Shown piece after piece: positions 13,801 to 15,345 of a DNA stretch of 15,345 bases. Positions within the stretch are counted from its first letter, which is position 1. The number at the start of each line of letters is the position of its first letter. This DNA comes from a virus (taxonomy: Duplodnaviria; Heunggongvirae; Uroviricota; Caudoviricetes), in IMG/VR virus record IMGVR_UViG_2529292919_000012; one strand, given 5' to 3'. Position numbers: made by a program.

Positions 13801-15345
13801 TGGATGGGGGAGTGCTTATTTCTATGGATGGGGTACTTCTTTTTACTACGGCTTCCCATGGTGGATTGTAGGTGCAGGTGTTGATGATGTTGCCAGAAGT
13901 TTATTTTTTGCAGTTATCGTCATTGCTATATTTCTTATCGGTTGGGGTATTGGTGTTGTATTCTTTTTCGCAGTGAAAAGAAAACATTCTATGCAAGAGC
14001 TAAATGTATTTCGCCTTTATTTTGCTGTGGAATTATTGTTTGTGTCCGGCAATTATTGAGTTTTCTATATTGAGACAGAAGATTCAGGTACCTCTTTTGC
14101 TACTGTCAGCAGCGATTGCGCTGGCGGTTACAATTTCGATAAGATCTTATGGGCGATTTTTATCGGTATCATGCTTCTATGATAAGCCATTTATAAAAAA
14201 CATTTTTTTGAGATTGTGATGATTGCTTTTGTGGCATATTTTGGGCTTTTTTCATTTCTGACAGGATATTACAAACCACAGTTTAAGAAAGAATATGAAA
14301 TGATTAATTATAATGATGGTTGGTATTATGTTCTTGCTCGTTATGATAATTGTCTGGTTTTGTCTACTTCTTTCAATGCAGGTAGTAAAAGGTTTGTCAT
14401 TTATCAATCAGCACAAGATAAGAATCTTCAGGTTGATATTGTAAGGACCAGAATTTAATTGGCTGCATAAATAATATTTTAAGTTGCAAGTTGGCTATTC
14501 GTAGGAATAGAACCTTAGGCATGCTGAATGCGTTTTCTGAACATTGTTTTATAAACTGTGTCTGCTTGCTGTTGTGATCCTGCTTTTAGTGATGGTGATG
14601 ATGGATTTCACCAGCAGGATAATGTTGGTACTGACTGATGGCGCTCTGGTCTGCGGCATTGTGGTATTGCTGTGGCCGATGATGAAAGAACAGAATGAAT
14701 AATTCTTGACTTTTTTGTTTACTGTTTATTAAAAAATCAACCGCATGGTGAATCCTCCTTGGAGGGGCTAAATGATCGAGTTTTAAGGGCACGTAGCGAG
14801 TTCTGTTTGATCATTGCAGAACTTAGCGGGAGGCGCCATGCGTACATCACTAGTGTTATTCCTTTTATCATTTTCCTTGTGAGTTCTGGCTGCGCATTGC
14901 GCAGCCTTTTTTTTATGACCTGCCACTGGCAGATGGTCATCCTGTGATTTGATTCCGCTTCCGGCTTTTTAACTCTGTTCCTCTACACGGGAGAAATTCG
15001 ATGTCGATTAAACATTACGATGTTGTCAGGGCGGCGTCGCCGTCAGACCTTGCGGAAAAGCTGACACACAAACTGAAAGAGGGCTGGCAGCCATACGGCG
15101 GACCGGTTGCCATTACGCCGTACACACTGATGCAGGCGGTGGCTATTGAAGGAGAGCCACAGGTCGGCCCTTCATCTGAGCCGGATTGGTACTACGTCAT
15201 CGTACTGGCCGGGCAATCCAATGCCATGGCTTACGGTGAAGGGCTTCCGCTGCCGGATTCATACGATGCTCCGGATCCGCGCATTAAACAGCTGGCGCGC
15301 CGCAGTACAGTGACGCCGGGCGGGGCTGCCTGCAGATATAACGAT

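Follow-up and report, generated by a model that had tools for sequence, protein, structure and literature searches.

A gene for the small RNA PasD2 very probably accounts for a structured late-region locus in a lambdoid prophage

What is encoded by the structured, leader-like region just upstream of a nanS-p-like gene in the virus record IMGVR_UViG_2529292919_000012 of IMG/VR (Caudoviricetes)? The window, by which is meant the whole stretch of 15,345 nucleotides (nt) that was analysed, carries at 14700-14920 a promoter-like sequence, successive hairpins, a short open reading frame (ORF) and a terminator, for which a reading of the sequence alone (hereafter the original prediction) had proposed a late-promoter/tR' unit like that of lambda 6S RNA, a leader-peptide attenuator or a small hydrophobic toxin gene. 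The elements are real, all of them lie on the plus strand, and TTGACT occupies 14706-14711 as claimed. We conclude that the region very probably encodes PasD2, an Hfq-associated, base-pairing regulatory RNA 172 nt long, whose gene is a moron of the late region in a lambdoid prophage. Since the element at 14706-14914 corresponds to the pasD2 gene already in the literature, the finding is a known one: the literature has included PasD2 since 2021 and an account of its distribution since 2026, to which its recognition here adds nothing new.

Identity and boundaries of the element

Alignment showed that positions 14743-14914 (plus strand) are identical at 172 of 172 bases to NC_011601.1 741157-741328 (plus strand), the coordinates given for PasD2, a 172-nt prophage small RNA (sRNA) of enteropathogenic Escherichia coli (EPEC) E2348/69 (PMC8550237, table S6). 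The identity to E2348/69 includes the flanks, with 246 of 246 bases matching over window 14690-14935. PasD2 was found by the ligation and sequencing of interacting RNAs (RIL-seq) on Hfq and validated on Northern blots (Pearl Mizrahi et al. 2021, PMC8550237); its name stands for pathogenicity-associated sRNA D, and the homologue of enterohaemorrhagic E. coli is named EcOnc13 (PMC8550237; Tree et al. 2014). A short transcript of roughly 200 nt had been anticipated at this locus, and in EPEC an RNA of identical sequence is indeed abundant by RNA-seq and gives a Northern band at the predicted 172 nt (PMC8550237). The Northern probe for PasD, the reverse complement of CATGCGCAGCCAGAACTCACAAGG, fits window 14875-14898 at 23 of 24 positions, and one probe mismatch with PasD2 is stated in PMC8550237. 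The second copy, PasD1, differs from PasD2 in alignment at four positions, a 1-nt insertion among them.

Gene neighbourhood and distribution point the same way. In a 2026 preprint by Zhu, Shabalina and Storz (10.64898/2026.05.13.724894), STnc100 is related to PasD, and pasD is described as adjoining Q and LpxR and, in phage 2B8, as lying directly upstream of a sialate esterase gene; in the window, Q and LpxR are found within 10 kb and an esterase gene directly downstream. By near-identity search the stretch is 100% identical in phage 434 and 98% identical in phage 2B8, and among 5426 complete E. coli genomes 697 contain copies of it, at a median of six places per genome. Scanning the window with Rfam at gathering thresholds returned no match anywhere, and a tRNA scan was likewise empty. 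The Rfam scan that had been proposed as a check proved informative in permissive form only, which exposed the relation to STnc100 (RF02076) as a full-length match over 14713-14917 (41.4 bits, E 3.8e-7). Canonical STnc100 copies score 77-165 bits on the same model.

The expectation of a self-contained unit of promoter, structured RNA and terminator was confirmed at both ends. The -35 and -10 hexamers are separated by a spacer of 18 bp and the start was assigned to G14743; this geometry, TTGnnn, 18 bp, TA[A/G]AA[A/G], 6-7 nt and a +1 G, recurs in most of the 42 distinct upstream sequences of relatives. The promoter was not listed by a consensus promoter scan of the window, which missed it because TAAAAA lacks the final T. 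At the other end, the terminator stem (14888-14906) is followed by eight T reaching 14914, with a folding energy of -15.9 kcal/mol and a z-score of -4.5 against dinucleotide shuffles. In the ensemble of the 172-nt RNA its bases are unpaired with a probability of 0.00-0.01, and pairing this complete leaves no antiterminator alternative. The terminator is presumed to serve also as the Hfq-binding 3' module of PasD2, and the last 20 nt of the RNA are where its RIL-seq chimeras map (PMC8550237). Directly 3' of it lies an imperfect palindrome of 26 nt, ATGACCTGCCACTGGCAGATGGTCAT (window 14915-14940, plus strand), which is kept in PasD1 and in the hybrid genes described below and is followed by no T-run on either strand. 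The coordinates of all features are collected in Table 1.

Table 1. Features of the pasD2 locus and neighbouring genes, in window coordinates
Feature	Position	Strand	Basis
PasD2 small RNA, 172 nt	14743-14914	+	Published coordinates mapped onto window; full-length STnc100 match
-35 TTGACT of pasD2 promoter	14706-14711	+	Sequence; TTGnnn at matching position in relatives
-10 TAAAAA, non-consensus	14730-14735	+	Sequence; TA[A/G]AA[A/G] 6-7 nt before +1 G in relatives
Closing helix, 5' strand GCAUGGUG	14743-14750	+	Pairs with 14834-14841, probability about 1 in ensemble, also in minimum-free-energy structure
Hairpin 1 (UCCUC CUUG GAGGG)	14753-14766	+	Local fold
Segment A, complementary to whole apical loop of hairpin 2 (14807-14815)	14771-14779	+	Minimum-free-energy structure; cognate energies
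Hairpin 2, stem 14798-14806 with 14816-14824, loop 14807-14815	14798-14824	+	Energy and covariation
GGGAGG, then CGCCAUGC, closing helix 3' strand with mini-ORF AUG inside	14828-14841	+	
14-codon mini-ORF MRTSLVLFLLSFSL	14838-14882	+	Translation; judged non-functional as a gene
U/C-rich body with seed, largely single-stranded	14850-14887	+	Unpaired-probability profile; published seed
Intrinsic terminator, 8-bp G+C stem, 3-nt loop, U8	14888-14914	+	Terminator scan, fold energy, ensemble
LpxR	11408-12367	-	
Q82-like antiterminator gene	12841-13530	+	
pR'-like promoter TTGCAA-17-TATACT (13514-13542) and tR'-like terminator (13576-13597 and T-run)	13514-13605	+	Promoter/terminator scan, phage 434 annotation, sequence
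tciB (DUF3927), ends 4 nt before -35	14544-14702	+	Pfam DUF3927, E 3.4e-14; PHROG 1470
SASA-family sialate O-acetylesterase (nanS-p-like), gene start	15001-15345	+	Phage 434 and E2348/69 annotations

Fold of the RNA and its family

As a whole, 14730-14920 folds beyond chance (z -2.8), and the 99-nt 5' domain folds better than its dinucleotide shuffles (z -3.2). Thermodynamic support for the individual hairpins was uneven: it was obtained for the terminator and for hairpin 2 (-10.4 kcal/mol, z -2.8) and failed for the tight hairpin CCUCCUUGGAGG, at -4.8 kcal/mol no better than shuffles (z 0.08). The sequence of the latter exists as predicted, although it had been placed 9 nt too far left, at 14745-14756 instead of 14754-14765. 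The CCUCC of hairpin 1 can instead pair with GGGAGG at 14828-14833, and the single-sequence minimum-free-energy (MFE) structure of PasD2 holds this CCUCCU:GGGAGG pairing together with that of segment A and the hairpin 2 loop, in place of the two hairpins of the original prediction. Alternative folds, a structure check proposed with the original prediction, were predicted at hairpin 1 and not at the terminator. GGA motifs in or next to hairpin loops (CUUGGA within 14753-14766, GGGAGG at 14828-14833) are conserved across the family and, we assume, resemble CsrA-binding sites.

A scan of viral contigs for GCATGGTGAATCCNCC gave 120 stretches and, from these, 88 unique STnc100/PasD-type sequences. 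They begin with 28 nearly invariant nt, continue with a variable middle and have in common hairpin 2, GGGAGG and the closing helix, which takes the form GCAUGGUG/C(A/G)(C/U)CAUG(C/U). GGGAG(G) and the CAUG of the closing helix are kept in nearly all relatives; the partner strand, CACCAUGC, shows G-U-compatible changes only, with 99.7% of cells paired. The stem of hairpin 1 is also conserved, likewise varying by G-U-compatible changes only and without changes on both sides. Both helices are uninformative for covariation, since their 5' strands were fixed by the search pattern. MAFFT misaligned the closing-helix 3' strand of PasD, and RNAalifold then closed on invariant columns only; because of this misplacement, the named structure was counted directly and the contact of segment A with the loop was assessed from cognate and non-cognate energies.

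Hairpin 2 is supported by covariation, with both-sided changes in six of its eight pairs across 42 relatives, an extent that none of 500 shuffles reached; it is paired in 97.8% of cases, against 36-47% in slid controls. A second, long-range pairing emerged from the same comparison. In every sequence class, the segment that follows hairpin 1 (segment A) is complementary to the loop of hairpin 2, each class achieving this with different sequences: AUCAGC/GCUGAU, AUCAGUAC/GUACUGAU, AAUGAC/GUCAUU, CUGGCU/AGCCAG, CUGGUG with CACCGG, CACCAG or UACCAG, CUGGUGC/GCACCGG and, in PasD, AAAUGAUCGA/UUGAUCAUU (14771-14779 with 14807-14815). Duplexes of cognate partners average -10 kcal/mol, as compared with about -3.6 for pairings mismatched at the level of classes, and only the identity among 5040 class permutations reaches the observed energy. 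As hairpin 2 covaries too, the two pairings would either coexist as a pseudoknot or represent alternative states; from reasoning, a geometry of kissing type seems feasible. The contact is absent from the Rfam consensus structure of STnc100, and the text of the 2026 preprint makes no mention of a pseudoknot (10.64898/2026.05.13.724894). The covarying pairing across the STnc100/PasD superfamily may be a new side result.

Conservation ends at the closing helix: 3' of it, the seed and terminator modules of family members are unrelated. Three hybrid genes, in viral contigs (L033 5430-5690, L027 and L039), join a canonical STnc100 5' domain to a terminator and downstream flank of PasD1 type, which suggests modular exchange of 3' ends by recombination; the hybrids carry a different U/C-rich seed. 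It is possible, though we hold it to be doubtful, that PasD and STnc100 constitute a modular phage sRNA platform in which a pseudoknot-like 5' scaffold, possibly functional itself, is combined with 3' seed and terminator modules swapped by recombination. If so, the scaffold might bind protein through its GGA-containing loops, shield the RNA from nucleases, or act as a switch with the pseudoknot and a CCUCC:GGGAGG rod as its two forms. STnc100-type genes were also observed in tandem: L008 (2265-3380, minus strand) has a run of four downstream of tRNA genes, and pairs about 230-480 nt apart occur in the viral contigs L011, L020, L021, L072, L077, L088 and L091.

The exposed arm and its predicted targets

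The U/C-rich body of PasD2 contains UUCCUU twice, at 14859-14864 and 14873-14878, and UGUGAG at 14878-14883; UGUGAG is the published seed, which stands opposite the target motif CUCACA(GG) (PMC8550237, figure S5 and table S8). PasD2 was recovered on Hfq in RIL-seq chimeras with many mRNAs (PMC8550237). The exposed arm (14842-14887) was compared with five RIL-seq target fragments of E2348/69 by windowed duplex prediction with shuffles, a search used in place of full-length RNAduplex, which returned long, loop-ridden duplexes of no value. For uspA, an uninterrupted duplex of 18 bp was predicted over the Shine-Dalgarno (SD) sequence and the AUG (-22.9 kcal/mol, z -4.8), and for mepS a duplex over the SD (z -2.5); in neither case did any of 60 shuffles do as well. 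Weaker pairing was predicted over the SD and AUG of yhdW (z -1.6) and in the fragment listed as coaE (z -1.3), where the site coincides with the SD of zapD, an overlapping gene whose AUG lies 8 nt further on. In gltI, the predicted site lies further upstream and was not significant in the windowed search with shuffles. The coaE-listed site, CUCACAGGAAAAA, corresponds to NC_011601.1 118596-118615 (minus strand; L124), and the gene regulated there may be zapD, which encodes a cell-division protein.

These elements can be assembled into a tentative mechanism. Host sigma-70 RNA polymerase would start at G14743 from TTGACT-18 bp-TAAAAA and stop at the terminator at 14888-14914; because pasD2 has a sigma-70-type promoter of its own, a lysogen could produce the RNA without any need for Q. 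The first 99 nt would fold into a compact scaffold of closing helix, hairpin 2 and the contact between 14771-14779 and the hairpin 2 loop, and the next 46 nt would form an exposed U/C-rich arm with its two UUCCUU anti-SD motifs and UGUGAG. While Hfq occupies the terminator and U-tail, the arm would pair with ribosome-binding sites of host and virulence mRNAs (those of uspA, zapD, yhdW and mepS being the predicted ones) and most likely block the initiation of their translation. As modelled, the arm fits ordinary Hfq-assisted occlusion of ribosome-binding sites. In lytic growth, Q-modified polymerase coming from pR' would have to pass the PasD2 terminator to reach nanS-p and the lysis genes.

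Several observations weigh against this account. On the side of the gene, the -10 TAAAAA is non-consensus, the 5' end of PasD2 rests on RNA-seq coverage and not on a mapped primary start, and the STnc100 gathering score of 47 bits is missed both by the window element (41.4 bits) and by other PasD loci. On the side of function, duplex predictions were significant for only two of the five targets; the published MEME motifs of the seed are weak (E 6.5 for PasD2 and 2.4e3 for PasD1; PMC8550237); PasD2 was not less abundant in an hfq mutant, with an RNA-seq log2 fold change of +0.55 (PMC8550237); no target is validated; and the function of PasD is described as not elucidated in the 2026 preprint (10.64898/2026.05.13.724894).

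Alternative readings and related systems

The alternatives are best weighed against the layout of the region. pasD2 stands in the moron region between Q/pR' and nanS-p with the lysis genes, and harbouring Hfq-bound sRNAs is a conserved trait of the moron site downstream of pR' (Tree et al. 2014, PMC4104026). The Q82-like gene is immediately followed by the promoter/terminator pair at 13514-13605, likely the lambda-6S-like late promoter/tR' unit of the prophage; it would yield an RNA of about 55-60 nt and shows a weak Rfam match to STnc240 (28 bits, cut-off 55). It is followed by a gene for a 247-amino-acid (aa) membrane protein, tciB, pasD2 and the esterase gene, which begins 86 nt after the 3' end of PasD2. 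The 247-aa gene (window 13715-14458, plus strand) is intact in phage 434 and E2348/69 and appears as three ORFs in the window, split by an insertion (about 14045) and a deletion (about 14195), each of 1 nt, that shift the frame for 150 nt; it is either a pseudogene or the product of a sequencing error. The best overall match of the window is prophage PP2 of E2348/69 (window 3370-15345, 99.6%). An origin from phage 434 throughout was rejected on base-by-base comparison, only about 11193-15345 matching 434. The window is a mosaic, in that 1-3370 matches replication and regulatory regions like those of Stx2 phages and the part before about 11193 is unrelated to 434.

That the locus itself is a late-promoter/tR' unit like lambda 6S RNA was the first proposal of the original prediction. 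Read in this way, or as a unit like StxS, it would be the Q-loading promoter with its first terminator, and its promoter, short structured RNA and strong terminator upstream of late genes speak for such a unit. The separate pair at 13514-13605 takes that place, however: pasD2 lies about 1.2 kb and two genes further downstream, the element is present more than once in a prophage region and in a genome, and PasD2 is expressed in uninduced EPEC cultures (PMC8550237), all of which makes the proposal barely credible. A cis-acting structured leader or insulator, comparable to a riboswitch or attenuator, whose conserved, pseudoknotted 5' domain and terminator would set how much transcription from its own promoter or pR' enters nanS-p and the lysis genes, with the released RNA as a secondary product, is unlikely. 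A downstream gene could be identified for 79 of 123 copies, and all are co-oriented with it (nanS-p in 63, holin in 16); the 5' domain is far more conserved and structured than an sRNA consisting of seed and terminator needs; and the promoter scan showed none evident in the 86 nt between the PasD2 terminator and nanS-p. Against it, the ensemble shows a complete terminator with which no other pairing competes, the sequence from scaffold to terminator is swapped wholesale among relatives, which suits an expression platform badly, copies occur in tandem arrays (four in L008), and the RNA builds up as a distinct molecule that is bound to Hfq and has partners in trans (PMC8550237).

The short ORF raises the question of whether the gene has a dual function, encoding besides the RNA either a hydrophobic peptide of 14 aa, which would be a toxin or a membrane peptide, or a 62-aa membrane protein from a TTG start at 14759-14947. 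GGGAGG (14828-14833) resembles a strong SD and precedes the ATG (14838-14840; stop at 14880-14882) by 4 nt, ribosome footprints are recorded on some STnc100 copies of EDL933, where ribosomal coverage values reach 3.2 (PMC5331693), and a coding sequence (CDS), CPT_434_70, is annotated at the element in GenBank OL657226. We nevertheless consider a dual function very unlikely. The 1-nt insertion of PasD1 turns the 14-aa peptide into one of 36 aa and breaks the 62-aa frame; among unique relatives, the homologous AUG opens ORFs as short as 2 aa and as long as more than 37 aa, which are unrelated in sequence and usually continue across the terminator; both GGGAGG and the AUG are sequestered in the closing helix with a pairing probability of about 1; and 14 aa are too short for a membrane span. 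The conservation of the AUG is explained by its being part of the closing helix, and the Leu/Phe/Ser-rich, hydrophobic character of the peptide by the U/C-rich seed being read in that frame. Both a leader-peptide attenuator and a toxin would need a conserved ORF, so that neither proposal is supported, the attenuator lacking a competing antiterminator as well. That protein-coding annotation does not explain the region was borne out. ORFs overlapping PasD2 on either strand have no Pfam or PHROG match.

Annotated proteins do overlap the gene in public records. In phage 434 (GenBank OL657226), CPT_434_70 begins with TTG, spans 14759-14947 (plus strand), includes the terminator and is labelled a "putative membrane protein" of 62 aa; RefSeq E2348/69 shows a pseudogene on the minus strand over PasD2 at PP2 (window 14737-14940) and a 132-aa hypothetical protein at PP4. 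None of the three matches Pfam or PHROGs; they are probably mis-annotations, and the 62-aa CDS was rejected on account of the frame broken in PasD1, the included terminator and the lack of a Pfam or PHROG match. With the locus read as pasD2, the phage 434 and RefSeq E2348/69 annotations could be corrected, and phage 434, a classic and tractable lambdoid phage with an identical copy, could offer a simple genetic system for PasD function. The leads obtained in silico are the ribosome-binding sites of uspA, zapD, mepS and yhdW as targets, and the covarying long-range contact of the scaffold.

Among known systems, lambda 6S RNA and StxS share with PasD2 the form of a short terminated late-region transcript and differ in starting at a Q-loading promoter directly after Q. 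The anti-sRNAs AgvB and AsxR (Tree et al. 2014) are likewise Hfq-bound and encoded in the moron region downstream of pR' in lambdoid prophages; unlike PasD2, they are 51-60 nt long, lie on the opposite strand in convergent orientation and act as sponges of GcvB and FnrS. No Rfam match to AgvB or AsxR was found in 13400-15100, nor a minus-strand terminator at pasD2. Leu and Phe leaders and the type I toxins Ibs, Ldr and Hok resemble PasD2 in having a short hydrophobic ORF adjoining a terminator; in PasD2, by contrast, the ORF is not conserved and there is no sign of an antiterminator or of an antisense RNA, and such leader matches to Rfam as the window has are weak and located elsewhere. A divergent relative is STnc100 (RF02076), which includes EcOnc27 downstream of stx2B. 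PasD2 departs from it in a shorter hairpin 1 loop with a C-to-U change, in the deletion of a CCGGG/CCCGG hairpin 3, and in a 3' seed/terminator module unrelated to that of most STnc100 copies. The elements of the STnc100 architecture that were looked for (closing helix, hairpins 1 and 2, GGGAGG and terminator) are all present in PasD2, and the two have in common the promoter geometry, the first 13 nt, GCAUGGUGAAUCC, hairpin 1, the contact of segment A with the loop, hairpin 2, GGGAGG and the closing helix, as well as their position and orientation in the moron site of the late region.

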